64,000 nucleotides of DNA from Ostrea edulis (lineage: Eukaryota), in assembly GCF_947568905.1 (NCBI RefSeq), contig NC_079164.1:29698001-29762000 (forward strand), read 5' to 3'. Both the position numbers and the translations under genes were made by a program. Under the pieces are notes generated by a model, which saw nothing but the letters and a program-made list of their open reading frames with translations, was not told where the DNA came from and ran no database searches. Of this stretch, positions 1,480-62,800 are shown piece after piece; position 1 is the stretch's first letter, and every line of letters starts with the position of its first letter.

Positions 1480-1671
1480 AATGATATTCAGGATAATACA
1501 TGACAACTCGTTCTTGAAAAATGTTTGTATTACGAATCATTTGGAGAAAAGGTTGATGAGTTGCATTTACTTGTTTCTACTTTCATTCACCAAAAAGCTC
1601 CTTTTTGTGTATTATTTCATGGATTCTAAAATGCTACACAACTAAACAACGGGTAACTCTTGAAGGGAACT

Positions 1672-3189
1672 ATGATAAGAGCGTGTGCCTTTCTGAGGCG
1701 AAACGTTTCTCTTTCCCCATTGCAAACGATAACCTTGGATAAAACTCGGCATCATGTTTCGCAGTGGCTCCGGCGTCATGCCAGCTCGAAAAACTTCAAA
1801 CGAAACAGAAGCCGAGTACTGGTATCGTTCAAGTCGATGACAAAAATTCCAGACTTGGATTCGTCTGCAAAATTATCCCCACAGCAAGTGACATCCATTT
1901 TAGAGCTTGAACAGAGAAGATTTGACATTCAGGATGGTGCAGTTAAAAGTGTAGACATTAACAGGTTAGCTGCAAACGATCCGATCGAGGACAGGGATGG
2001 ATACGCTAAACTGGCTCCATCAAAGTTTTTGTTTGGTGTTTATGATGGACATGGTGGCTGTTGGTGCTCGAGTGCGGTCAGCGAACGTCTTTTCCACTAC
2101 ATCGCCATCTCCTTAGCCTCATATGACATTCTTGAGGATGTGATGTCTGGAAATTGGGGAATAAACAATCTAGTAAACTGGTTCCAAAAAGAGACTTACT
2201 CTGAAATTTCCCATCGTTTGTATCAACGTGCAATTCTGAGATATGCTCAAGAGTCTTTAGCAGCACATGAGCCTAGTAGTGTTGAGCAGCATCTTAAGGA
2301 TGCGTTTCTGAGGCTGGACCATGACATCATACAGGAGGCCATTCCCTCTGGACAAAATAAAGAGTTCAATACGGACTCCCTTCTCTCGGCCATGGCGGGC
2401 TCTTGTGCAACTCTATCTTACATAGATGATACGGCTCTTTACGTGGCAAATCTAGGCGACTGTCGCGCAGTACTTGGAGTTAATATACAGGACTCGGAGT
2501 ATATTGCTGTGCCACTTTCAAATACACATGATGCTCAGAATGCATCTGAAATTCGTCGAATTTTAGATAAACACAAAAACGAATCGAGTAACATCATAAA
2601 GAATAATCGTCTTTTTGGAGAACTAGCCCCATTACGAGCATTTGGTGATATTAGATACAAAGTGTCATTGACTGAATCAAAGGATTTGGAAAGGTATTTC
2701 AATTCTCCCACTGCTGAAATTCGTGGATACTATGACAATAAAGTTGTACCCCCAAATTATAAAACTCCACCATATTTGATATCTGAGCCAGAGGTGATCC
2801 GTCATAATCTCACTCCAAAAGACAAATTCCTGGTCATTGCTTCAGATGGACTCTTTGATATGTTGTCTCCAGACAAAGTGGTGAAACTTGTGGCTGGTCA
2901 TATCAATGGAAAACAAATCCTGATTGATCCCCAAATAGACACCAGTATGAATCTGAGGGAAATGAATCAATATCTTGTGGAAAGGAAGACCAAGTTGGCC
3001 AACAGGAGTATAGATGACAATGCAGCAACTCATCTGATTCGTAATGCATTAGGCCCGGAGCACAGACAGATCTCATACTACCTCTCTTTACCAGATCAAG
3101 TGTGCCGAACTCAGAGGGACGATATGACAGTAGCAGTTATTTTCTTTGACGGTGATTACATTAGAAACAAAAGCTCTGTAAGAGCATGA
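1672..3189 (+). CDS. PDP1: [Pyruvate dehydrogenase] phosphatase catalytic subunit, mitochondrial (PP2C family), intronless, 505 aa
   Basis: PP2C motifs FGVYDGHGG, AGSCA, LYVANLGDCRAVLG, LAPLRAFGD, TPPYL..EP, FLVIASDGLFD, DDNAATHLIRNALG, RDDMTV; basic presequence; first ATG at 1672 (track starts at TTG 1660); PDP1 versus PDP2 orthology not resolvable. Confidence 0.93.
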   Translation: MIRACAFLRRNVSLSPLQTITLDKTRHHVSQWLRRHASSKNFKRNRSRVLVSFKSMTKIPDLDSSAKLSPQQVTSILELEQRRFDIQDGAVKSVDINRLAANDPIEDRDGYAKLAPSKFLFGVYDGHGGCWCSSAVSERLFHYIAISLASYDILEDVMSGNWGINNLVNWFQKETYSEISHRLYQRAILRYAQESLAAHEPSSVEQHLKDAFLRLDHDIIQEAIPSGQNKEFNTDSLLSAMAGSCATLSYIDDTALYVANLGDCRAVLGVNIQDSEYIAVPLSNTHDAQNASEIRRILDKHKNESSNIIKNNRLFGELAPLRAFGDIRYKVSLTESKDLERYFNSPTAEIRGYYDNKVVPPNYKTPPYLISEPEVIRHNLTPKDKFLVIASDGLFDMLSPDKVVKLVAGHINGKQILIDPQIDTSMNLREMNQYLVERKTKLANRSIDDNAATHLIRNALGPEHRQISYYLSLPDQVCRTQRDDMTVAVIFFDGDYIRNKSSVRA

Positions 3190-28651: not shown

Positions 28652-29258
28652 TGTAACGTGTTTGGGTCCGTAAATTTGGATAGATCAAGACAATGATAGA
28701 TAAATGATTGTATATATAGAAAAATGGCAATCAGTAATAATTACGAAAAATGATGTGAATAAGAACGAGTCAATATATACATATAAGTCTTAGGATTATC
28801 TATCCCTAATATAAGAGCAAACAAATCTAATTAGGCATATGGTCTGTGTCCGGGCAGGTATGTATCCTCGGGACAGGTATGTATCCTATACAAGTATGGG
28901 TCTCGGATGTATCCCCAGATCTGTCCTATACCCAGACAGAACTTAAGTACAATTATATCGAAATATAACAAACAGTTTTAATTCACTGTATAACACCCTA
29001 AAACCAGTATACTAGCCACCGTATACTAAAAATAACCAGGGTTGAATTTATTCTCGCCTTACCGCTTCTGCTGCGATCTTACTCCTTTGAGCTCCGACAA
29101 TGAACTGGCGAAATATCGCTCATCACCGCCTTATATACTGATGTGCACTCGAACTACCCTCGGACGCTTTCGTAATGCACAGCAATAAAGCCCGGTTTAC
29201 GTAATAGCTAGATACATCCCGAGCCCGACTTTTCCGAGCCCGACCGTTAATCATCACA
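28652..29258 (-). repeat. Gypsy-1 3' LTR
   Basis: Near-identical to 35258-35867; purine-rich tract GAGGAATAGAGGCGTGGG immediately internal. Confidence 0.95.
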
Positions 29259-29503: not shown

Positions 29504-30163
29504 TTACCGCATTAAGCTTCCAACATTCAATCTTACTACATATAAAACTCCTCTCTCTACAATGTTCTCGACACTTCTGCCATTCTCATGGTACTTGGTA
29601 ATGGTAACCTCTTTAACTCGCTTTCGGTAGCCAGCTGTCTGGGTACTTTTATCCACTGTACTTCCGACACCAGCATCAGTCTGTGTCGCAACTGCCACGC
29701 CACCCTGGGCAGGATACACTGCGGTTCTACAGACCACTTTTCTAGGAGCTTGAACAGGACTAGGAGAAGTTCGTTTTCTGTACGTACGTCCAGTCAACAG
29801 GTCAATTGTATCAGCCTTATCTGCTGGGGGTTCTTTTTCCTTGGACGTCTCCTCCAATTGAACCTCAGGATCTTCATCCCAGTCACTCCCACTGTCACTA
29901 TCATCCTGCGGTGAACAACTGGGTCCTGGAATCTCTTTCTCTGTCTCTTTGGACCTATCGATCTCCACATGCTTCAACCTCATGTGTTTTGCTAGATATT
30001 CTTTCTTCTTAAAGGACACATGACATCTTTCGCACACTAACATGCTGCTGGCGCACTTTACTACATGGGCTGTCCAGGCATCCTTCCCTTCCACTTCCAT
30101 AAAGCACACTGGACAAATCTCCTTCAGTTTCTTGGGGGTCACCTTTGTGTTCACCATTGTCAT
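29504..30163 (-). CDS. Gypsy-1 accessory ORF, 219 aa: C2HC plus C2H2 zinc fingers, acidic tract, TQT motifs
   Basis: tttttcag|A ATG at 30163; CPVC-x12-H-x3-C, CERC-x12-H-x4-H; VATQT, DKSTQT; fully open. Confidence 0.85.
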   Translation of the reverse strand: MTMVNTKVTPKKLKEICPVCFMEVEGKDAWTAHVVKCASSMLVCERCHVSFKKKEYLAKHMRLKHVEIDRSKETEKEIPGPSCSPQDDSDSGSDWDEDPEVQLEETSKEKEPPADKADTIDLLTGRTYRKRTSPSPVQAPRKVVCRTAVYPAQGGVAVATQTDAGVGSTVDKSTQTAGYRKRVKEVTITKYHENGRSVENIVERGVLYVVRLNVGSLMR

Positions 30164-30312
30164 TCTGAAAAATATGTAAAACACAACAACCTTATACAAA
30201 TGATTTCAGCCTTCTTGATAAAAACAAACAATAGCAGGACTACTGGTCCTATCATAGCATAGAAAGCTCTGGGATATAGAATTTATACATATATACAACA
30301 GAAATTCAGGTT

Positions 30313-33300
30313 CTAGTCCTGAACATAATCATGTAGCCAAGTAGGAGTACGCCTTTCGCGTTGTGGTCGGTTCTCAGCAACCAACTCGTCTGTAACTTCA
30401 ACATTTTTGTTGGAGGATCTAAAGTCATCATCCTGTTCTTCGATATCTATATCAATATTTGGAGAGTCACTGAACCCTTGCTCGGTACCCTCGCCTCTGA
30501 GAACTTGAGCCTTACAGTCTTTCATCCTGTCGCAATGAACTACTTGTTCCTTTCCGTTGCGTCCACAGTTGACCTTGTATAGGACTTCGGATACTTTTGC
30601 CAGGACCTGGAATGGTCCTCGCCAATACGATGTCAACTTGGGAGAGCAACCGGTTTTCCTTTGGGGGAAATATACATACACCGAGTCCCCAGCAATGAAT
30701 TGCTCATAGGACATCTTCATGTCGTGATAATGCTTTTGCCGAAGAATTGCTCCCTCTGAATGTCGTCTAACCAAGTGGTGGACCCGTTCCATCCGATCGA
30801 GCAGAATCCAGACCCAGTCATGCTTTGGGACTTGTTTCCAGGATGAAGGCATATCATATATAATATCCAACGGGGTGGTAGATTCCCTACCCAACATAAG
30901 CATGTTTGGGGTGAATCCCGTTGATTCATGCTGCGATGCTCTGTATGCCATAATTACAAAGGGTATGCTTTCATCCCAATCCCGATGATTATCATCGACA
31001 TAATTACTTAGCATTGTAGGTAAGGTCTTGTTGAACCGTTCTACCATACCATCAGACTGAGGATGGTATGGTGTGGTTCTTGTTTTTCGGATTTGCAAAT
31101 GTTTGCATACCTCCTGGAATAAAAGACTCTCATACTGGCGGCCTTGGTCGGAATGTATGGAGACAGGGACTCCAAACCTACAGATTACTTCCTCTACAAT
31201 TAGTCTTGCTACAGTTTGAGCCTCCATGTTAGGCATTGGGAAGGCCTCTGTCCATTTGGTGAAGTAATCCGACACTACCAGTATGTAGCGATTCCCTTTA
31301 TCTGTGACTGGGAATTCCCCAAGGATATCTGTCGCTATCCTCTCCATTGGGTAACCAACTTGTAAAGGTTGCATTGGACCTCTCTTTGTCTTAAGTGGAG
31401 CTTTCCTTCGTGCACATTGGTCCCATCCAGCAACATAACTCCTAACATCACTTTGCAGACCCGGCCAGTAATAATTCTGCCGAATCTTGTTCAATGTCTT
31501 GGTCACTCCTAGATGACCAGATGTCTTTGAATCGTGCATCTGCTGCAAGATAAATCTTCGCTGTGAGAGCGGCATAACAATTTGATATGCCGTATTGTTG
31601 CTCCCCTCAACTTCCCACATGCGACACAGCAATTCATCCTTCAGCGCCAATCTACTCCACAGTGACTTGACCATGTAACTTTCAGCAGTAACTTCAGTGT
31701 ACTCTGGACGCTTCCCATCCTCCATCCAATCCTTTACAAGTCTTATATCCCGACTTTCATCCTGCATTTCTACTAGACTGCTTGATTCAGCAGTACCCAC
31801 GTCTTTAACCTCCTGGTTCAATGTTCTTGTATAGTCCTCATGCACATCTGGTTTCTCCCAGTCGTCAAAATATCCACATTGTGTGCAGGGAATTCTACTT
31901 AGCCCATCTGCATTTCCATGCAGTCGCCCAGCTCGATGCTCGATTTCCATATCATATGCCGAAATCACCTCAAGCCATCGAGCTAACTGCCCTTCAGGGT
32001 CCTTAAACTTAAGCAACCACCGAAGGGAACTGTGATCCGTCCTCACAAGAAACTGGCGTCCATACAAGAAATGCCTGAAATGTTTTATAAATGTAACTAC
32101 TGCAAAGAGTTCCTTCCTTGTCACGCAGTATCTTCTCTGAGACTTGCTGAGAACCTTACTGGCATACGCTACTACCCTCTCCTGTCCATTTTGAACCTGT
32201 GAAAGTGTTGCGCCGATCGCATTTTGGCTCGCATCTGTATCAAGGATAAATGGTTTGCTGAAATCGGGATGCGTGAGGATAGGTGCTGATGTTAGTTTTG
32301 CTTTCAACGCATCAAAAGCTATCTGGCATTCATTTGTCCATTTGAAAACAACCGATGCTTCAGTCAATCGATGTAATGGACGAGCTATATCGGCAAAGTT
32401 TGCTATGAATTTCCTATAATAGCTGCAGAGGCCAATGAAGGACCTTACTTGCGTCTTGTTCACTGACTCTGACCACTTTTTAACGGCTTCAACCTTCTCC
32501 ACATCCGTCTCGACCCCCTTTTCAGATATAACATGCCCCAGGTATTTGACGTGTTTTGCAAACAGCGTGCATTTCCTGGCCTTCAGCTTCAAACCAGCTT
32601 CTCTTAACTTTTCGAAGACCAATTCTAGGCTTTGTAACATTTCTTCATAGGTTTTCCCATACACAATAACATCATCTAAATAGATGAGGTATACTTGCCA
32701 CTGTAAACCTGACAACACCGTCTCCATAAGACGTTCGAATGTTGCCGGGGCATTGCAGAGCCCGAATGGCATTACAATGAACTCATACAAACCTTGCCGG
32801 GTCACGAATGCTGTCTTAGGCTTGTCTTTTGGGTCTAGCTCAACCTGCCAGTATCCAGCGTTAAGGTCGAGGGTACTGAACCACTTTGCACCATTCAACT
32901 GATTGAGTGATTCATCGATACGAGGTAGGGGATAGGCGTCTTTGGTAGTGACACTATTTAACAGCCTATAGTCTACACCTTTTGGATCCGTCCTTCTTTT
33001 TTACCAAGACGATTGCTGATGACCAGGCACTCTGAGAAGGTTCAATAATACCTCTTTTCAACATGTCAGACACATGTTCTTCGACTTCTTTTTGCATATG
33101 AAATGGAAGGCGCCTTGGTGCCTGTTTGATAGCTTGTTGAGTCCCGGTATCGATCTTGTGTTGAACTATTGAGGTTCGACCAACATCCTCATCAGTCACA
33201 GAAAACAGATCTGAATACCTGATAAGTAAATCTCTGGCCATGTCTTTTTCGTGACATCCGAGATTCTTAGTGCTACTATCAAACAGCTCCTGTATATGCT

Positions 33301-35095
33301 TTGGCATTTCCTGCGTATTATTTGCAGCTTTCTTCGTACATAACACAGCTACCATCTCACTGATTGGGGACAACTTACCAACCACAGTTCCTGGCTGAAA
33401 AGTCTTGTTAGAAGATGACAGATTCATCAGGCGGAGTGGTACTCTTTCTTGGCGTCGTATCAAATACCTAGCCAACATAGCAGAATCTGATTGTAAGAAC
33501 TTTTCAGATGGCTCCACCAGTCCAATTTTCACAGGGAACCCCCCATCCGGCCCTGCACAGATCTTGCCCTCAGCCATTACTTCAGACCTGGGGGGGGGGG
33601 GTATGACAACCCTGTTGACTAGTGCAATCTTGTACTCATGTGCGGTGCCTTCCAACTGAATAGGGTGTTCTATCCCAGATATGGCAACTTTGTGTGTACG
33701 TATGTTTATAATGGCCTCATGCTTGACGAGGAAATCTAAACCAAGAATTCCGTCCACAAATATATCAGCCACGATCATTTCTTGTTGAAGAGTTTTCCCA
33801 TTCAGCACAAGGCTGATCGATGTTTTACCATATATCCCTACAGAGGACCCATTGGCGGACAGTACATTTCTGTCAACCTATTCAATGAGCACATGTCTTT
33901 TCCGTGTATGTTCCCATAGCATACCTTTGATAGCAAGGAAACAGTGGCACCTGTATCAATGAGTAAGTACGCATCCATCTCATTTATTTTGGCTGTCACA
34001 TAAACTCCTGACTCCTTGATAGAATGGATGGTCCTCGAGTGTTCCTCTCCTATTTTGGGTTCGTTACCTTGAGCCCGATCACTTGGCTTATGTCCAGTTG
34101 TATTCATTTTCTTCTGTTTATAACCTGACTGATGGGTGGGGTTAAATTCGGGACAATCTCTTTTTAAGTGTTTGTCAGATCCGCACCTGTAACACTTTCG
34201 TACACTGCTTGCATAATTATTCCTACTTTCATCTTTGGCCTGCCTTGCATCGCGTCCCTTTGTTTGCATTTGAAACTTCCATTGTTTCATGTCCTTCATT
34301 TCCCTTTGGAGATATCCCATATTTTTCTCCATCGTCTCTATGAATTTATCAATCTTTGAACCGTGATCAGACTCTTGATCTACGCGTCTCACACTTTCAG
34401 TGCGACGGCTCTCGGCTCTGTAAAATGCTTCAAGTTCAACGGCTCTCTATAGCGTCGTTTAGACTGTGAGGTCTGGCCTGTTTTACCTTCAGACGCATCT
34501 CCGCGTTATGCAGTCCATCTAGAAACTGTTCTGTGGCAAGGATCTCACGAACATCGTCCGGAGCCGTAGGATAGGCTAGATTCACAAGCCTCCTTATCTC
34601 TTGGCCCATCTCCGGTAAACTCTCTGAAGGTCTCTGTCTCCTTTCTCTAAGCTGAGTCCTATATAGCTCTGTCTGGTTTAAGGAAGCAAACCTATCCTGC
34701 AAAGCCTTGACCAGTTTTGCGTAGTTTTGTCTCTCATCCCTTGGCTGATTACCCAGCACACCTTGAGCTAGCCCTCTAAGAGATGAAGCTAGATATAACC
34801 CCTTCTCTGTCTCGGTCCATTCGTTTAGCAGGCACACAGACTCAAAATGAGATAGATAGTCGTTCCACATGCCTGAACCGTCATAAGTAGCAGGTTTAAT
34901 AAAGTTCCTTGGCTTTGATCTCGCCTGATTTTGGTTTGCATCTATCCTTGTGCTGTGTGCAGGGTTCTGTCCTCCGTTTACATCCTCGTGATTCAGGCTA
35001 ACATCACCAAGAGCCCTATCCGGTCTACCTGTAAACGGTGTACTCGTCCTTGTTATTTGTCTTGGCCTTGAGCTGCCAGAGATACTTTCCTGCAT
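30313..35095 (-). pseudogene. Gypsy-1 gag-pol, broken by at least three frameshifts (about 34440, 33840, 32970)
   Basis: KPATYDG gag, CYRCGSDKHLKRDC knuckle, LIDTGA protease, YLDD RT, FILDTDAS RNase H, HHCC (one Cys to Trp) and DDE integrase. Confidence 0.93.
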
Positions 35096-35232
35096 ACCTA
35101 AAAGTCGCAAAGATTAATCTATCTCCCTACTGAGATTTTCTATTTCTCGATCTATGTATGATATGTCAGCCCGTAGACCAGACATTGTGATAGAAACAAA
35201 TTTATTATAACCCTATCAAAACGACCTAACCC

Positions 35233-35257: not shown

Positions 35258-35867
35258 TGTTCCGTGTTTGGGTCCGTAAATTTGGAAAGATCAAGACAAT
35301 GATAGATAAATGATTGTATATAGAGAAAAATGGCAATCAGCAATAATTACAAAAAATGATGATGTAAATAAGAACGAGTCAATATATACATATAAGTCTT
35401 AGGATTATCTATCCCTAATATAAGAGCAAACAAATCTAATTAGGCATATGGTTTGTGTCTGGGCAGGTATGTATCCTCGGGACAGGTATGTATCCTATAC
35501 AAGTATGGGTCTCGGATGTATCCCCAAATCTGTCCTATACCCAGACAGAACTTAAGTACAATTATATCGAAATATAACAAACAGTTTTAATTCACTGTAT
35601 AACACCCTAAAACCAGTATACTAACCACCGTATACTAAAAATAACCAGGGTTGAATTTATTCTCGCCTTACCGCTTCTGCTGCGATCTTACTCCTTTGAG
35701 CTCCGACAATGAACTGGCGAAATATCGCTCATCACCGTCTTATATACTGATGTGCACTCGAACTACCCTCGGACGCTTTCGTAATGCACAGCAATAAAGC
35801 CCGGTTTACGTAATAGCTAGATACATCCCTAGCCCGACTTTTCCGAGCCCGACCGTTAATCATCACA
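35258..35867 (-). repeat. Gypsy-1 5' LTR
   Basis: TATATAAG at 35746-35739, G|GTAAGG at 35671, AATAAA at 35661-35656. Confidence 0.95.
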
Positions 35868-41977: not shown

Positions 41978-42329
41978 CTTTTATATTCTATATCTAAAAG
42001 TACAATTGTATTATAATGATTAAAAGCACAGTTTTGAAAAGTGTACACACACCGTGACACTTGTTAGAGACACTTGCAGCCCATTAAAGGGATATGGACA
42101 CAATTTGAGTTGAAAATTTTAAAAATTAAGAATGAATGGAGTCACGGGTGATGGAGAGAAGCGTAATCAACCGTGGGTTTTCGACGATGGAATACAAATA
42201 GCTTATGAGCATAAAAGTTTTGTACAATGAAATTTTTTTATCAACAACGTAGTGAACATATATAAATTCATAAATCAAGATGGCTTTCCTTTAATCTCTT
42301 CATTTCTTCTTTCAGTTTTTTTGGTCTCC

Positions 42330-43037
42330 TCCTCCCACTGGCTGACGTTCCTCTTCTTGGGCTTCACTATTACTTCGACCCGTTGTTTAGCTAGTTATCA
42401 TTGGACAAGAAAACCACATACAACTCTAGCTTTCACTCTTCCTCTGGAACGGGGAGGGTCTCCTTGGGAGGGGGACACTCCGCTGCAGAGCGTCTGAACC
42501 TCCAGACTTTGTCTACCGGTGGGGTTCCCATTCGGTCATCAAAAGGTTGCCGTGAGATTGCTGGTCTGCTGGGAGCCCAATTCCTCCTGCTGAGTTCATG
42601 TTGAGAACTGATCTAACCAGCTTCCTATGAAGATTTTTTCCATTTTGATTTTCTGTGCCGCCGCGGTACTCGAAAAAAAAAAACTCAGGGTCAACGAACT
42701 TTGTGTTTCGTTTTTTTTTTTTTGTTGGTCATCTGACATTTTGCCATTATGTTCTCCCTTCCTCTAGCATCCGTCTCGTGCTTGTTCCTTATATGGGTAC
42801 GCATGTCAGCCTTTCTACCACAACTTGCTTAGCAACCCATCACCGCACACTGGTAGGATGTATTCACCTGGCGATGACGCTCGTCCCAGTGACGGAAGTA
42901 GCGAACCAAGATTCCGAGCAACCAAATATCGGACATTCCATGTTGTCAGAATAGAAAAATTCCGTCTTATTTTCTATCTCCAGAAACATGCCATCATCGT
43001 CATCGACGGAAGTGTCAATTCTGCATTCATCATTATT
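42330..43037 (-). pseudogene. Gypsy-3 accessory zinc-finger ORF remnant
   Basis: T-rich tgtag| acceptor at 43038-43039; MECPIFGC..(frameshift)RHWDERH and YQCAVMGC*ASCGRKADMRTHIRNKH (42941-42778). Confidence 0.7.
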
Positions 43038-45521
43038 CTACACTAATAAATAAATAACATTATTTTATGGATTTATTTCAATTTCTTAAATTATCTCCCC
43101 ACTACCTTTAAAAACTAATTCAAATACATATTCGGGTCATCTAGCAATAATTTAATATTAGTTATCGTAATTCCACAAACCATAACGATCTGGGTTTTTG
43201 ATTTTGTCTTCCAGATTTTGTTATTTCAGTAATTCAGAGATTACTGGCACTCTCATCTTGCTATATTTCGTTTTCTTCTACATCGTCGACGGTTAGAAAT
43301 TTACGATCAGATTTATCTAACTTCAAGTGATCAATGAAAGGTGAAGATAATGAACAGTGATCAATCTCCTAGAAGCAATACAAAATAGATAGTTGGGCAA
43401 ACACAGACCCCTGGACACACCAGAGGTGAGGTCAGGTGCCTAGGAAGAGTAATCATCCCCTGTCGACCGGTCACACCCGCCGTGATGAATGATCTATTTT
43501 TGATTTATTTCCGTCTATTTCGCGGATTTCATATGTGACGTCGGAGAAGCGCTGGACCACTTCGTAAGGTTCTGTCCATCCTAGGGACAATTTTTGTCTC
43601 GATCTTGGAATGCTCCATTTCTGAACTCCTACATTTTGATCGTGATATTTATTCTGTTTCTCAAAACCGAGATCAATGCACATTGAGATGCCGTATTCAT
43701 AGTATGTCACATCCATTCTATGTGTTCAATTGGACACTGTTTATCCATTTCATTTGATGACCTTCCTACAGGTAAATCAATTGAAACTGAAACTTCTCTG
43801 CCTAGCATCAATAAGTTCGGTGCGCATTTAGTAATTTCGGAAGTCTGTATGGTGTAGTTCTGCTCTTGATTTATCCCGAGAAGAGAACACATTTCTGAGA
43901 AAACTCAGCTTCAAACTCCCTCCAGGGATCAGTATGTGTCCTGTATGACACTCCATATCTGCAAATGTACTCAGTGACCACAATGTCCGCAACAATTTGA
44001 GCTTTCATCCATTTGGAGAAATAGTCTCCGACTACGAGAATACATTTATTTCCTTTATCTGTATATGGCAGTGGACCCAATATATCAATTGCTATGCATT
44101 CCATCGGGTAAGTGAACGTGTTGCGTTTCACTGGTTATTTCCCGGAACCAATCTTTTTCTGTTCACAAAGATTGCAGGTATCACATCATTAGTCATACCA
44201 GCTAGGCCAGTAGAAACGAGTTTGAATTTGTTTTCAATGCTTTTGTTAATCTAAGAGACAGGTATGCAGCTGTTTCATTATCTCAGAACGAACTGATGAT
44301 GGTGCAACAACCTGATTCATTACTATTCATTTTTCTTCATCATTCCAAGTTCTATAAAGCAATCCATTTTCCTTCTTTAGCTTATCCCATTGCTGTTGCA
44401 ATTGGGATACACTATTGGTGGCGATGTTTATTCTTGGTTTTTCTGTTTTGTCTATCATATATTTCATAACGCATTGAATGTTTTCGCCCCTTTCTTGCAG
44501 CTCTTACTATTCCATAGCTCAGTTCAGTTTGATTCTTCAGTGACAATAGCTGCTAGTAGATTTTGTTCAGTAGGTCCGGAAGAAACAGCTGTAGTTGTTA
44601 CGGCATTATTACCATCTTGACCATTCGTTATCAGCATACATTCAGGACAATCTGTTCGTTTGCATTTCCTAAATGGAGCTCGTGAAAATGCATTTTGGTG
44701 TGCTGTTTCTTTCCTATGATCGATCTTGAAATCATATGTGTCCAGACAACTCTCCCTGGTTCCTTAAAAATTTAAGCCAGGTTAAGGAGTAAGAAAGGTC
44801 GTCCAAATAAACGATGCCTGAATTGTTTGACAAAAGGGACTGCTGCTAAGAGTTTTTGATATGTTGTGCAATATCTACGTTGTGATTTAGACAGAGGTTT
44901 ACTCCCATAAGCTATAACCCCCTCTTTTCCATTCCGTAACTTGAAATTACGCCTCCTATTCCGTAACCATTGACACGCGTATCCAGGATGAAACGTTCAA
45001 TTTGGGTGGGGTAAGCTAAAATTGGTGCAGTTGCCAATTTATCCTTCAAGTTATTGAATGCATAATTGCAATTACCAGTTAATATGAACTTTACATTCTT
45101 TTGTGTCAGTCTAGTCAAAACATAGGGAATTGATGACAAGTTTACCTAGGAAACTTCTTAAGCTGGTTAGATCGGTAGATGTTCGCCAGTTTTTAACAGA
45201 AGCGATCTTTTTAGGGTCACAAGCAATCTCTTTCTCTGAAACAACGAATCCCAAATAACAAACTTTATTAATGAAGAGACAGTATTTCTTCGGCTTTAGT
45301 TTGAGATTTGCGGACTTGAATCTACTGAATACAAGTTTCCAGTTTTCAAGCGTTTCATGAAAAGTTTCCCCAAATACAACAACGTCATCTAGATAGACCA
45401 GGCATCCTTCCCTCTGTAGTCCATGTATATGTTGGTAAACCGTTTTTCGAGTACCAAGATATTTGGTGCTGAGCGAAGCGAGGGACCAAATCAAGTGGCG
45501 AGAGAAAAGTTAGATCACACT

Positions 45522-50038: not shown

Positions 50039-51235
50039 TTATAATGGAAAACATTCCTGATCAATTTTTCTTCTCTGAATATTGGGAACATCGGTAACGT
50101 TGTAGCGTGTAATGAACTCAGCACATGATGTTTTTCCTGCCGCGTAATGAAGATGTCTGTACATTTTGACTAGGAGGTTATGGTTATAGTCTTTATCCTG
50201 ATGTTTGAGTCCCTCGTAATTTCCCTGAATTGTTGTCTGATGAACAGCCAAGAGCGTCTCGGTAGCGTCAATCACATTCCCACGCTTTCTAGCGTCCAGT
50301 ACGAGCCAATTGTCGTATGCTCGTCTACCAACAATAACTTCTGGAATATCTTTCCAAGGAAAGTTTTTCATTGTTATGAAATAGTCCTCACCCCACGCGG
50401 TAAACAAAGATCCTCTAGCGTCCGTTGTTTCAATTAATGTTGATTGGTTCTCAGCGTCAGTTGACGTCACATTGTCCACGTTTGTTCGCCTGCCGATAAT
50501 CATCAATGGGTGTGATTTGTTTACACTAGAATTCAGTATTGCCATCAGCGTTATAAGAAGAGTATCAGTAAAAAGAATATCTCCATTTGCGTAGGCATAA
50601 AAAGTAGAATTGTAAACACTGATAGTATCTAAATACATATGTTTGAGAACTGGTACTCCTTTTCGTGTCTTAGAGATGGGTAAAACTTTCCATCCCATAC
50701 TTGCTACCCTGCCAGATAAATCAGCCTCGTTAGTGAACATGATCGGTTGGACAAATGGTTTCAAAAGATTCCAGTTTTTCACTGTATTGTTATGACACGT
50801 GTATTTTTCGGTGGATACTTTCCACGTTGTAAACAACGTCAGTAAAGTTTTATTTGCATTCAACAGTTCCAGTGCTAGGTTTTCTACATACTTGGGAATG
50901 TTGGAAAAATTAGATTCCACATAAAGTGCAGATCTGGGTACAAGAGTACTGGAGTAATTCTGGATTATATTTCTCTCATTATCCATAAATTCCTCATCAT
51001 TTATTAACCATTTGCTGGTATAAGCCCACCAATCTAGCAGATTCTCTTTCCATGACCGAAAGTCATTAAGCGCCCCCTCTATCAGGTCGCGGTTGGCTAG
51101 GGCTTGTAGACTGACCTTAGAGTAAAGGTGCATATAGATAAGCATGCAGAGAGCGCACAACGCTATGATTTTAAGGTGAACTGTTTTCCTTGCAAATATT
51201 CTTTGTACCCGGATGTCGCTTCTACTTTGAACCAT
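50039..51235 (-). CDS. Type II membrane glycosyltransferase-like protein, 398 aa, single coding exon
   Basis: N-terminal TM (IIALCALCMLIYMHLY), GVPVLKHM, YAYANGDILF, IIGRRTNV, PEVIVGRRAYDNWLV; acceptor tttcag| at 51248-51249. Confidence 0.75.
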   Translation of the reverse strand: MVQSRSDIRVQRIFARKTVHLKIIALCALCMLIYMHLYSKVSLQALANRDLIEGALNDFRSWKENLLDWWAYTSKWLINDEEFMDNERNIIQNYSSTLVPRSALYVESNFSNIPKYVENLALELLNANKTLLTLFTTWKVSTEKYTCHNNTVKNWNLLKPFVQPIMFTNEADLSGRVASMGWKVLPISKTRKGVPVLKHMYLDTISVYNSTFYAYANGDILFTDTLLITLMAILNSSVNKSHPLMIIGRRTNVDNVTSTDAENQSTLIETTDARGSLFTAWGEDYFITMKNFPWKDIPEVIVGRRAYDNWLVLDARKRGNVIDATETLLAVHQTTIQGNYEGLKHQDKDYNHNLLVKMYRHLHYAAGKTSCAEFITRYNVTDVPNIQRRKIDQECFPL

Positions 51236-51476
51236 TTCTCCATATCCTGAAAAAAAATATACCTAAATGAATTTGAATGGGTATTGTCATGATGTAATAT
51301 TTATATTTGTTGGAATTTAGTTGATAGGAAATTAAACATGTAATATCTATAATGATAGGGTAAAGATGGTTTGAATTCAGTGAAGAAGAAATGTATCAAT
51401 TTAAAACATGGCATGATACAAAGTATCCACTATTTTTATCCCTTTTAGTACTTTTATGGAAATGTCAATGGTCACC

Positions 51477-55840: not shown

Positions 55841-58675
55841 CGTGTAAACTTTTCATGGATCGACGCCCGAATTCACTTCAGTAAAGCGATTCCTGATTGG
55901 TCCTTGATTCTTTGTCAAGCTATTGTTATTGGTCGACTATTTATTGAATTATTCATGAGACTGTGGTCAATAACATGACCTCAAATGCAATGCGGTCAGA
56001 TCCTTCTCCATTGTAAAGGTTAGAGAAGAATGAGATTGGCACAGTGTGTAGGTAAATTAAACAGCGTGCATTCTAATAGTAATGTGCAGATAAATTGAAT
56101 ATAGTGCATTCTGATAATACAGCATAGATTCCGCCCATCACAGTTACGACATACGTGTCGCAAAAACGCAGATTCGCACGATAAAGTAAACAATGGCGAC
56201 TACTGCAAATATTCTCGAGATTTTTCCAGTCGATATTTCATTAGATTACGTTAAGAATATCTTCCCCGTTGCTACGCGCCTGATAAATATATAGCAGGGT
56301 CTAACAGAGCAGAATGAAAATACATTTATATTTATAAATCGTTTCGATATTTTTAAATTTACAAAAAATGCCCTCGTGAAACAAAATTTCAAAGCGACAA
56401 TTTTAGAGAAAAACTCGAAGAACATGTTCATGCTAAATTTATTTTGTTTCACGGCGGCAGTTTTTCTGAAATTCGGGGATACCCCTCCATTTTAACGCTA
56501 AAATCATATAAATCGCTTATTGCTTGGTTTAAACTCGAAATACTTTGGCCAATTTTGTCAATACACGTCTTTTAAACTTATTTTTAAAAAAAATATTGAA
56601 TCAAGATATACAAGTTCTAATTGGTTTTATCATACATTTGAATAACTTAATTTTTTCAATCTTCAATGCAACACCTTGTAACACCAATGTAAAGCGTCTT
56701 ATTGTTTATGAATTAGATATTGTGATAGTCAAATTAGAATACTTATTTTTATCCATATCTTCCAACGAACTATTCCTAGCGGCGAAATGTTACGAACTAA
56801 TGTAGTTCGGATTAAAGTAAACGAAGGGAAATATTTTAAATGCAAATCAGATAGTTTGTAAGGATAAAGTATGATGGTTTGTAGTTGGATATGAAGGTTC
56901 GGCAATAGAAAACACACAATTCTTCCTTATATAATGATAATGAGATAATCCCCAGTAGCAAAAAGACAAACATAGTCAGTATACTTGTTCTGATAAAATC
57001 CAGCCGAACTGAACTAAGCCGGCGACGCGCTAAGAATCAAGTGACCCGGCTACAGTACAGTAATGAAAATGTTGACCTTGTATTGTATAAACATTATTCG
57101 GCATAGAAATGACCAACATATTTACAAATCAGGTTTATTTCACCCGTGTAAAATTTAAAAAGATTATATCTTAGAATAAGCAACTCTCGATACCACTGTT
57201 TCCAAGGACGCCAGCTGAAGCCGCCTTCGCCCGTCAAAATTTTCCTGCTCAATCGGCTTACCTGGCGGAATGTGTGCGCAATTCCGGCTCACAATCAAGT
57301 GTGCCGCCGGTCATCGCCGGGTAACCCGAGTACGTCGGATCGTTAGAATCAAGTATGCTAAAGGTGAAATTATTTTGTGTGTGTATGTGTACACAGCGTT
57401 TGCTGCGACGCAGTTGATTCCTTTCCACACGCATTGTGACGTCATCAGTCTGATAAAATGAGATAACACTAAAAATCAAATGCATCTACCAACGAGGAAA
57501 AATGATGCATATACGAAGGCTGTTCGATATGTAATGTGTATTGTACCACAGCGCGATAACGTTTTGCACGATTTCGTGGATGATACTGTAACATGGTTGT
57601 CAGGGTAAACAAATCTCAGACTTTGGTAGCGAGTAGCATACGATTCTGGTATTGAATCGAGTTATAAAACTCTGGTAGCGAGTGAATTTCAAGTAAATAA
57701 GACAAGGCGGTATCAGTTTTGATCAAATAATATTACGATTTCAGTAGCATAGAAATGATATTTACAATGAAAACAATGTGTTTTTTTAAGACAAGATGGG
57801 GAATTCTGTAGTCCAAAACGGAAATGGTTAAAACGAAAGTGAAAATGAAACTAAAGATGATTTATAAACAAGTCGAGATGGATTGGCACATCTCCCTGGG
57901 ATTGGCAGTAATTTAAATGGGGGATAGCTTACCGACAGCTAAAACACGTCCGTCTCGGATCTGTCCAGGATGAGATCTTTAACTTAAACGATGGGAGTTG
58001 GAGCGACTCCCATAACGACATAAGTAGTCGCACGTGTGACAACAGTAACGAAGCATCTTCGCCCAAACAATGGCGTCTTCGTAGATGGTCACGACCATGT
58101 AAACATTGGACTACAGTAAAGGCTAAAGAATTCCATCTCAGCTTATTACAATATATAGTAAATATATACATAAATATATACAAATCAACAAAGCCATTCC
58201 TGAAATGTAAAACAGGACAATATGAATTAATGAAGCTCTAGAAGACGTCTTCCCTTCTATATGGCTCACATTAAATGTATGTACAAATTGAATGACCACA
58301 TATGTGTATATACAAATATGGAAAGATGAAACTAAATGAACATGACTATTATGAATGAATAATAAATAGATTAAATGGATCTCAAATTATCCACATGCAA
58401 TTACCTAGTGATTCAAGTATTAAACACCACACAACTACAGTCATGATATATGATACATATATAAAGTCCAACCCCCACTCACACTATTTGCCTTTACTTA
58501 CCCAAATCCGTTACAATTCCCGCCAACTTAATAAAATTTCGTCCCGAAATGTAATGTTAAAATGAATTTCAAAATGTCTGGGTATCCTTCTCTCTTGTCT
58601 GTAATGCACGGGGATCCCTGGTCCAAGTCTCGGAAAGTAAGTACGTTCTTCCATCAGGAAAGTAAACTGATTCAT

Positions 58676-59512
58676 CTATCTGGACCTGCTAGTATCCGGA
58701 GGGAATGATCCTACGTTTGTAGTTCTGAGTGTGTTGTTTGGCTGCTGTACGCTCGGCCCGTAGAAGTGTGCCTTCATGAGCAAACAGGGAGCGTTGGCAA
58801 AGAGAAACCGGGGGTCGGCCGCGAAACAACTAGGATCCCATGGATTTGTGTCCATAGCAGTGTTCGTGGTAGATACCTCCATGGTTTCAGTATGGGCGTC
58901 AACCATGGTGACTGGTTGAGGGATCCGGTCATTTGTCTGGACTCCAGAATCCACCATGGTAACTGGTGGCATACAGGATGACTCCTCCCATGGTTCCGTC
59001 TGGATGTTGTTAGCTTCCATGGGAGTTGGCTGGTCCTGTACGTCTGGCACCATGGCTTCTTCTGAGTCCAGGAATGAAAGAGACGGATAATCTGGCTCCA
59101 TCTACCCAGTCGCTGGCATATGTAGGTCGTTCCACAGGGCCTCAAATTCTGGATCGTACTGCATACCTCCTTCTGTAGATGAAATCACCGAAGAGGAACA
59201 TCAGGAATCCTGAGTCGTTGCCATTGGCTTTGATGGTGGTGGTCGGATGTTCACAGACTTGACCCGTGGTTGCCGGGTGGAGCGTCTTCTATGCATCTCC
59301 TCGTGCTTCCGAAAGGCGTATGCTCTCGTCTTCGGACACTCATAGCCACATCCTGGTACTTTGCATATTAGTTATTCTCCATGGCTGGTTCTTATATGCC
59401 GGAGGAGTTAAGCTTTCTCGGGAAACCTTCTCCCACATTCATGACATTGGAATTGGTATTCCGGGGGCAAGGTACAAGCATAAGTGAAGTCTTTGTATTG
59501 GAATCTTGACAT
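58676..59512 (-). pseudogene. Gypsy-2 accessory ORF (279 codons, one frame, 4 point-mutation stops): two C2H2 fingers plus VQT motif
   Basis: ttctcttttcgtctttccag|TC ATG at 59512; FQCHEC-x12-H-x4-H; LICKVPGC-x14-H-x3-H; VDSGVQT. Confidence 0.8.
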
Positions 59513-59829
59513 GACTGGAAAGACGAAAAGAGAACATATCATAGTAAATCATCTTCATCTATATAAAATCTACATTTTCCCTGGCAATGGGAAAATGAAA
59601 TGTCTACTAGATCAAAGGGAACATTTATCATTCCTGAATCAATAGTTTCTATAAAAAATGGACTTCACAATAACAAAATAGGTCTAAATAAGTCTATCCA
59701 GGTCCCTCCCATATTTATCAAATTTAATTTTAAAAAATATAGATCCTGGTCATGGATCTACTTCTGCTGTGAACGAGTCTGGGCTGGGACAGTGGGCACA
59801 AACCACCTTCTAACATTCCCCACGTAAGG

Positions 59830-62800
59830 CTTTAACCTATTCATGTTGACTACTTTAGACTTAGATTTGGGCCCTTTCTGAATCTGATAAACTAAATCAG
59901 ACAGTTTCCTAATCACTGTATAGGGTCCGTCTCATTTACATTTCAATTTGGGAGACTTCCCTTTCCCATAAAAAGGGGTTAAACAACCAAACAGCTTCTC
60001 CCACAGAAAATGTGTTACTGGTAGATCTAAGGCCATACTGTCTTTTCTGCTTGTCACTAGATTTAGTCATTTGTTCACGTGCTAAGTCATGAATTTTCCA
60101 CATCTTCTCCAAGAAAGTCTCTAAGTAAGTACATACGTCTTGGTCACAAGTGTGATTTCTGAACATGTCAATGGGTAAATCTAATTCTCGTCCGAACATC
60201 ATCATAGCAGGTGTTTCACATGTACTTTCGTGAACAGATGATCTGTACGCATACATTACTAAAGGAAGGAACTCATCCCAGTCTTTGCATAGATTCGATG
60301 GTACGATTTAACTGTTCTACCAATCTGTCCCCTTGCGGATGATAGGCTGTGGTTCTTGTCTTATCTATATTAAGAAGTTTACATATATTTTGAAAGAGGG
60401 ATGACTCGCATTGTCTCCCCTGGTCTGTGTGGATGCAAGATAACGAACAGTGATCAATCTCATAACTCCTATAAGCAATACAAATAGATAGTTGGGCAAA
60501 CACGGACCCCTGGACACACCAGAGGTGGGATCAGGTGCCTAGGAAGAGTAAGCATCCCCTGTTGGATCTGATGTGGTATTCCGAACCTACTAATAAATTC
60601 ATTCAACAGTAAATCAGCAATTGTTTTTGTTTCCTGGTTTTTCATTGGATAAGCCTCTACCCATCGCGTAAAATAATCTGTAATCACAAGAATGTATTTA
60701 TTTTCAAAGTTGGACACAGGTAGATGTCTCATGACATCCAGTGCAATTCGTTCCAGTGGTACTCCCACCTTATATTGCTGTAACGTCCTCTTATACTTCT
60801 CATGGGTCTCTTTTGAGCTTGACACTGGTGGCATCTTGCAATCCACCGTCTTACAACGGCATGGTAATCATTCCAGTAGAAACTACTTCGGACCCTGGCT
60901 ATTGTCCGGCTAATCCCTAAGTGTCCAGCCACAGTTCTATTATGCAATAGCCGTAGCACTTCTTTTCGCCAACATTTTGGCAACAACAATTGCCAGGTTA
61001 CAGAGTTTGAATCTGTGTTAATCCATCTCTTATTTCGAGTCTATCCCATTGAGACCAATAGGTTTTCAATACATAAGGTAAGTGTGATATGTTTTTCCAT
61101 GGAGGGCGTCCAATTGTACTCTCTTTCCATAAAAGGATATGTTTTATTGTGTTGTCTTCCAGTTGAACAATCCGTAATTCAGCCATAATTTTTCCAGTTA
61201 TCCAAGTATTTGCTTCTGATGTTTGTTCAATTTCAGCATGTTCTTGAATATTTCTTACGAACTGAGGTTAATAGTGACCATTAGTGTTTTCTTGTTTTGT
61301 AGGTAAGCTCATAACAGGTGGGTGATTATTGGAAAAGCTTATTTCTTTTGTTTCCTGTCTATCGCAGTATCTACAATCATCACATGGGCGTCTGGACAAA
61401 CCATCTGCGTTTTGGTGTTGACGTCCAGGTCGATGATGAATGGTCATATTATACGTGTCAAGTACTTCTATCCAACGTGCTAGTTGATCTTCTGGGTTTT
61501 TAAAAAATCTTTTCAACCAAGTCAGGGCTCCATGGTCAGTACGTATTGTAAAATGGGTACCATATATGTAGTGATGAAAGTGCTTCACAGAATCGACAAC
61601 TGCAAGGAGTTCTTTTCTTGTTACACAGTATTGTCTTTCGTTTTTGGATAACGTACGACTAAAATAAGACACCGGGTGTTCACCATCACCATGAAGTTGG
61701 GATAAGACGCTACCAATTCCAAATCCACTGGCATCTGTATCAAGGATGAATGGTTTGCTCATATCAGGATAAACTAGAATTGGTGAAGTAGCAAGTGCAT
61801 TTTTCAGTTTTTTGAAAAACGTCTTCAAATTCAGAGGTCCAGGCAAATGAGCTATCTTTTTCTGTTAATTTACTGAGTGGTTTAGCAATTATAGAAAATC
61901 CTCTGATAAAGCGTCTGTAGTAAGAGACTGTTCCAAGAAAACTACGCAGCTCTTTGACAGTTTTTGGTTGGGGCCATGTTTTAATGGACACTGTTTTTGA
62001 AGGGTCTGGAGCAATTCCACTCTCTGATACTGTGACCTAAAATTTGACCTGTTTTTTTAAAGACTTTACATGTTTTTGGGGGATATTTTCAAACCGGCAT
62101 CTCCTATTCTTTGTAAAACTTTTCTAAGTCGTTCGAGGTGAGTATCAAAACCTTTTGAAAATATAATGATATCATTTATGTAAATCGAACAAGTCTGCCA
62201 TTGGAGTCCTCTGAGGATGCACTCCATTAATCTTTCAAAGATTTCAGGACTGTTGCAAAGACCAAAGGGCATAGTTTGGAACTCGTAAAGACCACTAGTT
62301 GTTACAAAGGCTGTTTTTTCACTATCTGATGGGTGCATATCAACTTGCCAAAATCCACTTTGAAGGTCCAATACCAAAAACTATTTTGATCCTTGGAGGG
62401 CATCTAAAGAATCATCAATCCTTGGGAGTGAATACGAGTCTTTAATAGTTACACTATTTAGTTTCCGGTAATCAATACAAAAGCGAATTGAGTTGTTAGG
62501 TTTTTGAACTAACACTATCGGTGAGGCCCATGGTGATTTTGATGGTTTGATAACTCCTGTTTTGAGCATATGTTGTTATGCAGCTTCAGTCCCAGACTGG
62601 TGTACTGCAGGGTGGGGAAATAACCTCGAAGCCAAGTAGTAATTCAATACTTTATTATGGTTATGGCTTCACAAGAGGTAAAAGACTGAAATTAAATATA
62701 AATCACAAATAAACTCCTACACAGAAAATTCCTGATTTAGAAAAAAAACACTTATTACTCATATAATTTCACCTAACTGACTTTGGCAACAATATGATTT

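Follow-up and report, generated by a model that had tools for sequence, protein, structure and literature searches.

A conserved LC8-type motif in the zinc-finger ORF3 of a Ty3/Gypsy retrotransposon of Ostrea edulis suggests a host-clamped dimer

The Gypsy-1 element and its third gene

This study concerns the third open reading frame (ORF3) of the long terminal repeat (LTR) retrotransposon Gypsy-1 and two short motifs in its product that resemble binding sites for the host protein LC8. The element lies in a 64,000-nucleotide (nt) stretch of the Ostrea edulis genome (contig NC_079164.1, positions 29,698,001 to 29,762,000), hereafter the window, and coordinates are counted from its first letter. 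Gypsy-1 is a 7.2-kb Ty3/Gypsy element on the minus strand, in which an LTR pair, a target duplication, and the order gag, protease, reverse transcriptase (RT), RNase H and integrase are all present. The 5' LTR (35258..35867, minus strand) has TG...CA ends and 97.7% identity over 605 nt with the 3' LTR (28652..29258, minus strand), and the element is flanked by the 4-bp target duplication CTTC. The gag-pol region (30313..35113, minus strand) matches Pfam gag, zinc knuckle, protease, RT, RNase H, and integrase families and is split over four frames, with breaks at about 34440, 33860, and 32980; in related families gag-pol is a single frame of 1600-1700 amino acids. ORF3 (29504..30163, minus strand), which we assign to type 1, encodes 219 amino acids from an ATG at 30163 to a stop at 29504 and sits between pol and the 3' LTR, 150 nt downstream of the former and 245 nt upstream of the latter. 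It diverges from sister copies beyond about residue 205, with both motifs upstream of that point. Since gag-pol is in four frames and ORF3 departs from its sisters near its end, the Gypsy-1 copy is probably inactive.

ORF3 is nevertheless a real, selected gene, because in seven between-family pairs the nonsynonymous divergence (pN 0.27-0.36) is far below the synonymous divergence (pS 0.79-0.90), with synonymous sites saturated. Directly upstream of its ATG stands a putative splice acceptor, a pyrimidine run followed by AG (30164..30185, minus strand). An AG occurs 0-9 nt 5' of the ORF3 ATG in 13/13 families, with a pyrimidine share of at least 0.57 in 12/13 (figures that carry no background control), and this arrangement suggests that ORF3 is made from a spliced message. 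Four sequencing runs of unrecorded kind, examined as contigs, covered the element evenly and contained no joint with splice-site ends.

Architecture of type-1 ORF3

The structure model of type-1 ORF3 was built from 48 sequences. It predicts fingers at residues 14-64, a disordered linker at 70-179, and a beta-hairpin at 180-209. The tandem zinc fingers (29969..30115, minus strand) comprise a C2HC finger (30115-30053) and a C2H2 finger (30034-29969), folded with a predicted local distance difference test (pLDDT) of about 90; their Pfam zf-C2H2 match (E 9e-5) falls below the family cut-off, and the zinc ligands are near-invariant. The linker contains an acidic W-x-x-D-P motif (29867..29887, minus strand) with nearly invariant W, D, and P, and a basic G-R-x-x-R-K-x-T-x-P motif (29762..29791, minus strand) with invariant R and K, in both cases across the 48 sequences; the basic motif may be a nuclear signal or a nucleic-acid contact. 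With pLDDT of 50-76 and no secondary structure in the model, the linker places both LC8-type motifs in predicted disorder. The hairpin (29555..29620, minus strand; strands 180-193 and 196-209, pLDDT about 90 in a sister copy) is a candidate self-association module. Fold searches with the type-1 model and with a model of the type-3 ORF3 described below gave no match at E<=0.001, only weak zinc-finger matches. An env-like identity, which would show in a signal peptide, a transmembrane helix, and a fusion-protein fold, was considered and rejected, as the model holds fingers, disorder, and hairpin only and no env family was matched in Pfam.

The two LC8-type sites, each anchored on a Gln-Thr (QT) pair, lie at the end of this linker. 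The proximal site, VAVATQTD (29675..29698, minus strand), spans residues 156-163, and the distal site, VDKSTQTA (29633..29656, minus strand), spans residues 170-177. An earlier note on this DNA had reported VATQT and DKSTQT within 19 residues of each other, and both are exactly where it put them, in one open frame (29692-29678, residues 158-162, and 29653-29636, residues 171-176), with their Gln residues 14 apart. DKSTQT also occurs in the rabies virus P protein. The note's identification of DKSTQT with the motif of Bim is borne out by Table 1 of PMC6607443, where it forms the core of the Bim peptide (dissociation constant 0.16 uM).

Relatives of type-1 ORF3 and conservation of the QT sites

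The O. edulis genome yielded at least 130 matches to ORF3 among 150 scored candidates, some of them unrelated finger proteins. Twenty distant matches were fetched, of which 16 have pol directly upstream, two are joined to protease, and two are unrelated; judged by eye, all 18 family members carry a QT site in the tail. The two unrelated ones (L048, L049), finger proteins with neither pol nor motif, were rejected as family members. The two joined to protease (L036, L046) are family members in deleted elements, and in these, as in P0030 and P0032-P0034, the region from RT to integrase has been lost while ORF3 remains in frame behind protease. A profile search over 1.84 billion proteins returned 150 rows, 117 of which are multi-finger proteins longer than 600 amino acids and outside the family. 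The relatives analysed here are the 27 matches, among those listed, that form a single stretch reaching the C-terminal end; six partial ones were left out. These full-length cluster representatives share 18-59% pairwise identity (median 27%), and the named homologues come from oysters, a pearl oyster, and scallops (Ostrea, Saccostrea, Pinctada, Mizuhopecten, Argopecten). An Atlas search with the homologue P0006 returned generic zinc-finger clusters. P0040 is a distant relative with the same N-terminus and a QT site, and has two more fingers at its C-terminal end instead of the hairpin.

Conservation of TQT across homologous ORFs, which the earlier note had proposed as a check, was found: a QT anchor (T/V/I-Q-T) lies within the last 65 residues in 26/27 relatives (one in 18, two in seven, three in one), and in 25 of the 26 site-bearing relatives a site stands 29-46 residues from the C-terminal end. 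The distal site is the one conserved family-wide, with Q175 and T176 invariant, alongside the zinc ligands, in 19/19 sequences of 24-76% identity to Gypsy-1 ORF3, and a second QT site is present in 8/27 relatives. Recruitment of these relatives did not depend on the motif, since with a profile lacking the QT region 27/27 still score E<1e-3, as do 21/27 when the fingers are removed as well. Among 40 loci reached through pol only, 5/5 non-truncated type-1 ORFs carry a QT site. All synonymous codons are used at the Q and T positions across 17 families, and the constraint therefore acts on the protein.

The density of TQT is 2.70 per 1000 residues in the 27 ORF3 relatives, compared with 0.15 in the 117 multi-zinc-finger proteins and 0.15 in the long gag/pol frames of 20 loci, making ORF3 18 times denser than either. 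TQT occurs in 14/26 tails against a shuffle mean of 0.94 (maximum 5 in 2000 shuffles), and 23/26 tails pass LC8 flank rules against a shuffle mean of 2.7 (maximum 9); because the ORF3 sequences are related, these counts are non-independent and are not to be read as a probability. They bear on the idea that TQT arose by chance in a decayed ORF whose linker is rich in Thr. The broken gag-pol of Gypsy-1 and the dead ORFs of Gypsy-2 and Gypsy-3, two further elements in the window, would suit that idea, yet the motif is conserved at saturated synonymous distance, exceeds the shuffle controls, and keeps a fixed distance from the C-terminal end. Chance is refuted for types 1 and 3 and, taken as a whole, is hardly credible, while the VDSGVQT of Gypsy-2 may still be a chance occurrence.

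The flank rules are our own coding of those given in the text of PMC6607443 (polar at -4, large at -3, no aromatic at -2, no Pro, and D/E/P at +2). Residue counts use 25 distal sites, picked without reference to their flanks and with P0183 dropped as missed by the tail pattern. Asp occupies -4 in 18/25, Gly, Ala, or Ser occupies -2 in 21/25, Asp or Glu occupies +2 in 20/25, and Val, Ile, Lys, Arg, and other large residues occupy -3. According to the available portion of PMC6607443, tight LC8 binders show the same flank pattern, and the phage-display optimum is VSRGTQTE. The flanks of Gypsy-1 itself, with Ala at +2 of the distal site and at -4 of the proximal site, are allowed and in neither case optimal.

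The same residues could be read otherwise, with TQ as an ATM/ATR-type S/T-Q phosphorylation site, as an FHA-docking site (T-Q-T-D is readable as pT-x-x-D), or as a strand joining the protein's own hairpin, only a few residues downstream. The residue before Q, however, is Val, Ile, Met, or Cys, none of them phosphorylatable, in 12/25 distal sites, and it is less well kept than the Thr after Q (21/25) and the Asp at -4. As for the strand, the model leaves the site disordered, and type 3 has the same motif before a helix, so the motif is not part of the hairpin. We regard these readings as improbable.

Host LC8 and the complex model

The LC8 of O. edulis is identical to a solved DLC2 at 86/89 residues, with the groove unchanged. 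Its gene, the only full match, lacks introns and lies on a small contig (L051:1498-1764, minus strand, G000:C34), and a second paralogue, divergent and spliced, lies on C4. Modelling the complex of motif and LC8 had been suggested by the earlier note, and two LC8 chains (one dimer) were modelled with two copies of ORF3 residues 148-204. The score was 0.67, against 0.27 for the best control, and residues 154-163, which hold the proximal site, occupied both grooves, with Thr160 packed against LC8 residues 62-64, 75, 82, and 84. Runs share at least 79% of contacts, and the partner pLDDT is 47. The mark applied to such models is reached by 51/78 solved and 2/108 mismatched pairs, in a calibration that included no peptides. 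As LC8-TQT complexes are textbook structures, the model shows likeness to them rather than binding. Binding of LC8 by the ORF3 tail is a prediction that we hold to be very probable.

ORF3 types of Gypsy-2, Gypsy-3 and other elements

The ORF3s of Gypsy-1, Gypsy-2, and Gypsy-3 are of three different types, and those of the latter two are broken by stops and frame changes. The Gypsy-2 and Gypsy-3 ORF3s match the type-1 profile in the zinc fingers only, and homology to type 1 beyond the fingers was rejected by profile comparison. Other types were found at loci chosen by pol alone, and most have fingers.

The type-2 ORF3 of Gypsy-2 (58575..59560, start approximate, minus strand) contains fingers, VDSGVQT (58954-58934), VDAHTET (58903-58883), a FPDGR domain, and REKDTQT (58595-58575). 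VDSGVQT and its neighbouring repeat are exactly as first described, and of five decayed sister loci three retain VDSGVQT in the form VQT or VQI. The site is absent from three distant type-2 relatives, two of which have QT sites behind the C-terminal FPDG domain, where Gypsy-2 has REKDTQT; the site singled out originally is thus present without being the one that distant relatives keep.

The type-3 ORF3 of Gypsy-3 (42300..42935, end approximate, minus strand) has fingers, SLEVQT (42508-42491), and a remnant of a long helix. Its EVQT, previously placed one base away and called weak, lies at 42502-42491 and was underrated: QT is found in 13/14 type-3 sequences spanning the place (12 with the full anchor; some are close kin), and EVQT therefore marks a real conserved site. 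It falls in a stretch with pLDDT under 50 and directly precedes a predicted 67-residue helix.

Type 4 combines two fingers with a KCTD-type BTB domain at the C-terminal end (PF02214, E 1e-12 to 1e-17; L088:2135-3265 (+), L108:2099-3244 (+), L134, L174). Type 5 is a long ORF3 of up to 638 amino acids with fingers and a conserved C-terminal domain lacking a Pfam match (L159:1183-3096 (+), L175, L162, L090). Type 6, found in at least two families, is about 700 amino acids long, with an acidic N-terminal part, a stretch resembling fingers, and a TatD DNase domain at the C-terminal end (PF01026, E 5e-33; L152:742-2859 (-), L153:774-2819 (-), L141, L142, L178). Judged by eye, type 7 has fingers followed by two adjacent QT sites (L147:838-1800 (+)) or a TNT variant (L140:1828-2958 (-)) before a likely coiled coil, and L155 has neither. 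Type 8 is a short acidic and finger ORF3 of about 160-190 amino acids with no QT site (L149, L148, L165, L154). In an integrase tree of 44 rows and 144 columns, from which nine loci were left out as too short or unmatched, types 1, 3, 4, 5, 6, and 7 each form their own supported branch, type 2 is ungrouped, and L154 of type 8 groups with type 3 on a long branch. The deep branches of this tree are open, so a common origin and repeated gain of the motif are not told apart.

The integrase regions of Gypsy-3 and Gypsy-2 are interrupted by an 81-nt repeat (43383-43463 and 60482-60562, 95% alike), likely a small inserted element. Elsewhere in the window, an uninterrupted 510-amino-acid frame at 1657-3189 (+) has a PP2C domain (E 1e-37), and we take it to resemble pyruvate dehydrogenase phosphatase. 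A 407-amino-acid frame at 50039-51262 (-), hydrophobic in an N-terminal stretch and unmatched in Pfam, gives the impression, and only that, of a membrane-anchored glycosyltransferase-type protein.

Comparison with known systems

The closest parallels in layout are Swallow and the dynein intermediate chain, in which, as in ORF3, a QT-anchored eight-residue site lies in disorder beside a pairing module (PMC3995210, in the part available). The type-3 site followed by its long helix reproduces the arrangement of LC8-promoted self-association in these proteins; ORF3 differs from them in being a retrotransposon-encoded, predicted client and, in type 1, in having a beta-hairpin rather than a coiled coil. 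The earlier note had proposed an ASCIZ-like architecture. In outline this holds, since ASCIZ/ATMIN has N-terminal fingers and a disordered C-terminal part with TQT sites, but it has 7-11 LC8 sites (PMC5963919, in the part available) compared with mostly one and up to three in ORF3. The single site of 18/27 relatives sets ORF3 apart in valency, as do its two fingers (the first C2HC) and folded C-terminal module in layout, the level at which the two were compared. By valency ORF3 is not a member of the ASCIZ family and works more like a Swallow-type client.

Among retrotransposon proteins, CERV of the Caenorhabditis elegans element Cer1 offers a functional model by analogy: this additional nuclear protein, likewise encoded by a Gypsy element, has a candidate zinc site, forms oligomers, and acts on element RNA (PMC10309623). 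It differs in having other domains and in self-assembling with no host clamp, and the available part of that account mentions neither LC8 nor dynein. The LTR elements of bdelloid rotifers likewise carry family-specific non-env ORF3s behind pol that are said to be spliced and include nuclease cargo; those ORF3s are env-like, GDSL, DEDDy, coiled-coil, or transmembrane, and the words 'zinc' and 'C2H2' are absent from the accessible text (PMC5408684). A survey of mollusc LTR elements (PMC6238403) contains neither 'ORF' nor 'zinc' in its accessible text. Extra ORF3s in LTR elements and finger-bearing LC8 clients are each already known; in the literature covered, which excludes subscription journals and Repbase (where such ORFs may be listed), neither LC8 sites nor zinc-finger ORF3s were found described for these elements.

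Motif-driven dimerisation by LC8 also has a place in transposon biology. In Drosophila, LC8 dimerises the transposon-silencing complex PICTS/SFiNX through Panoramix (PMC7861614, in the part available), on the host side, whereas the ORF3 motif is carried by the element itself. ORF3 might be imagined as a counter-silencing factor: by using LC8, or by competing for it, the protein would oppose a host silencing complex that depends on LC8. The quick exchange of one ORF3 cargo for another, among them BTB, TatD, helix, and hairpin, does resemble conflict. A small protein with one or two sites would, however, be a poor sink for an abundant hub, and the fingers, W motif, and RK motif are conserved as well as the QT site, so ORF3 does more than bind LC8. 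Panoramix is not known outside flies. We consider counter-silencing unlikely.

Proposed role of ORF3 as an LC8-clamped dimer

The reading that we favor, with a probability of roughly 0.62, is that ORF3 is a selected two-finger protein held as a dimer by host LC8 and likely regulating its own element. The conserved motif in the predicted disordered tail would bind the host LC8 dimer, which would bring two ORF3 chains alongside each other and let the adjoining module, hairpin or helix, pair up; the dimeric regulator would act on the DNA or RNA of the element, and pairing of two-finger modules might supply the avidity missing from a single pair of fingers. The LC8 dimer offers two identical grooves, and domains next to a bound site are helped by it to self-associate (PMC3995210, in the part available). 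The position of the site just before a hairpin or helix, together with the BTB domain at the C-terminal end of type 4, points to dimerisation, and a type-4 BTB in place of an LC8 site fits oligomerisation as a shared need. The earlier suggestion that LC8 is recruited as a dimerisation hub is thus well supported by conservation, flanks, predicted disorder next to a self-association-type module, and the complex model. Dimerisation is probably the purpose of the site, and a nuclear role on the LTR or RNA of the element seems somewhat better than an even bet; if CERV of Cer1 is a guide, the likeliest target is the LTR or RNA of the element itself. The roles of activator, RNA export factor, and feedback repressor are indistinguishable here.

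Transport had been put forward alongside dimerisation, with the motif coupling ORF3, or particles carrying it, to dynein for delivery to the nucleus. Conservation and the complex model apply equally to this proposal, and LC8, originally discovered as a subunit of dynein, was proposed to act as a cargo adaptor. The grooves that cargo occupies are, however, those used by the dynein intermediate chain, and the available portions of PMC6607443 and PMC3995210 describe LC8 as a dimerisation hub and not a cargo adaptor. The motif also resides in a separate small finger protein, with TQT at background rate in gag/pol (Gag, integrase), and type 4 has a BTB domain at its C-terminal end. Transport thus gains no support here and seems a poor prospect.

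Several observations weigh against the proposed LC8-clamped dimer. P0118 has no QT site; the type-2 L084 has only THT behind its FPDG domain; the type-3 sequences P0206 and P0210 have TKT and KQT; types 5, 6, and 8 have neither a clear QT site nor a BTB domain, and some families have no ORF3. The ligand of the fingers is not indicated, as their fold matches, all at E>0.04, include both DNA-binding fingers and the ubiquitin-binding UBZ pair of TAX1BP1. In the complex model, the single LC8 dimer supplied took up the proximal site, so that groove placement concerns that site and not the more conserved distal one, and hairpin pairing is absent from the confident contacts. The passing score may reflect solved LC8-TQT complexes memorised by the program. 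The controls were unrelated proteins instead of motif mutants, and good scores from folding programs also go to some non-binders and AAA mutants (PMC12057147, in the part available). Finally, one test found that 31/53 TQT-type peptides did not bind LC8, and the accuracy of the motif predictor LC8Pred is 78% (PMC6607443, in the part available).

A broader and more tentative view, which we hold as possible though doubtful, is that bivalve Gypsy elements have radiated with dimeric finger regulators of their own, in which LC8 clamping recurs: an LC8 site would serve four types that occupy different integrase branches (hairpin, FPDG-domain, and two helix types), and BTB would take its place in a fifth. 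They would then be the first LC8 clients known from a retrotransposon, would work in a Tat/Rev-like or anti-silencing manner, and would tie transposition to the level of a hub used for fly piRNA silencing.

Most accessory genes in the LTR retrotransposons of animals have yet to be characterised, and in bivalve annotations ORF3 genes are filed as host 'uncharacterized' or zinc-finger genes. A conserved host-binding motif provides a cheap and sharp experimental handle on ORF3. If LC8 binding holds, mobile elements would exploit the LC8 hub in the manner of viruses and of the silencing machinery of flies, and the natural variation among dozens of ORF3 sites could help to refine the motif rules for LC8.
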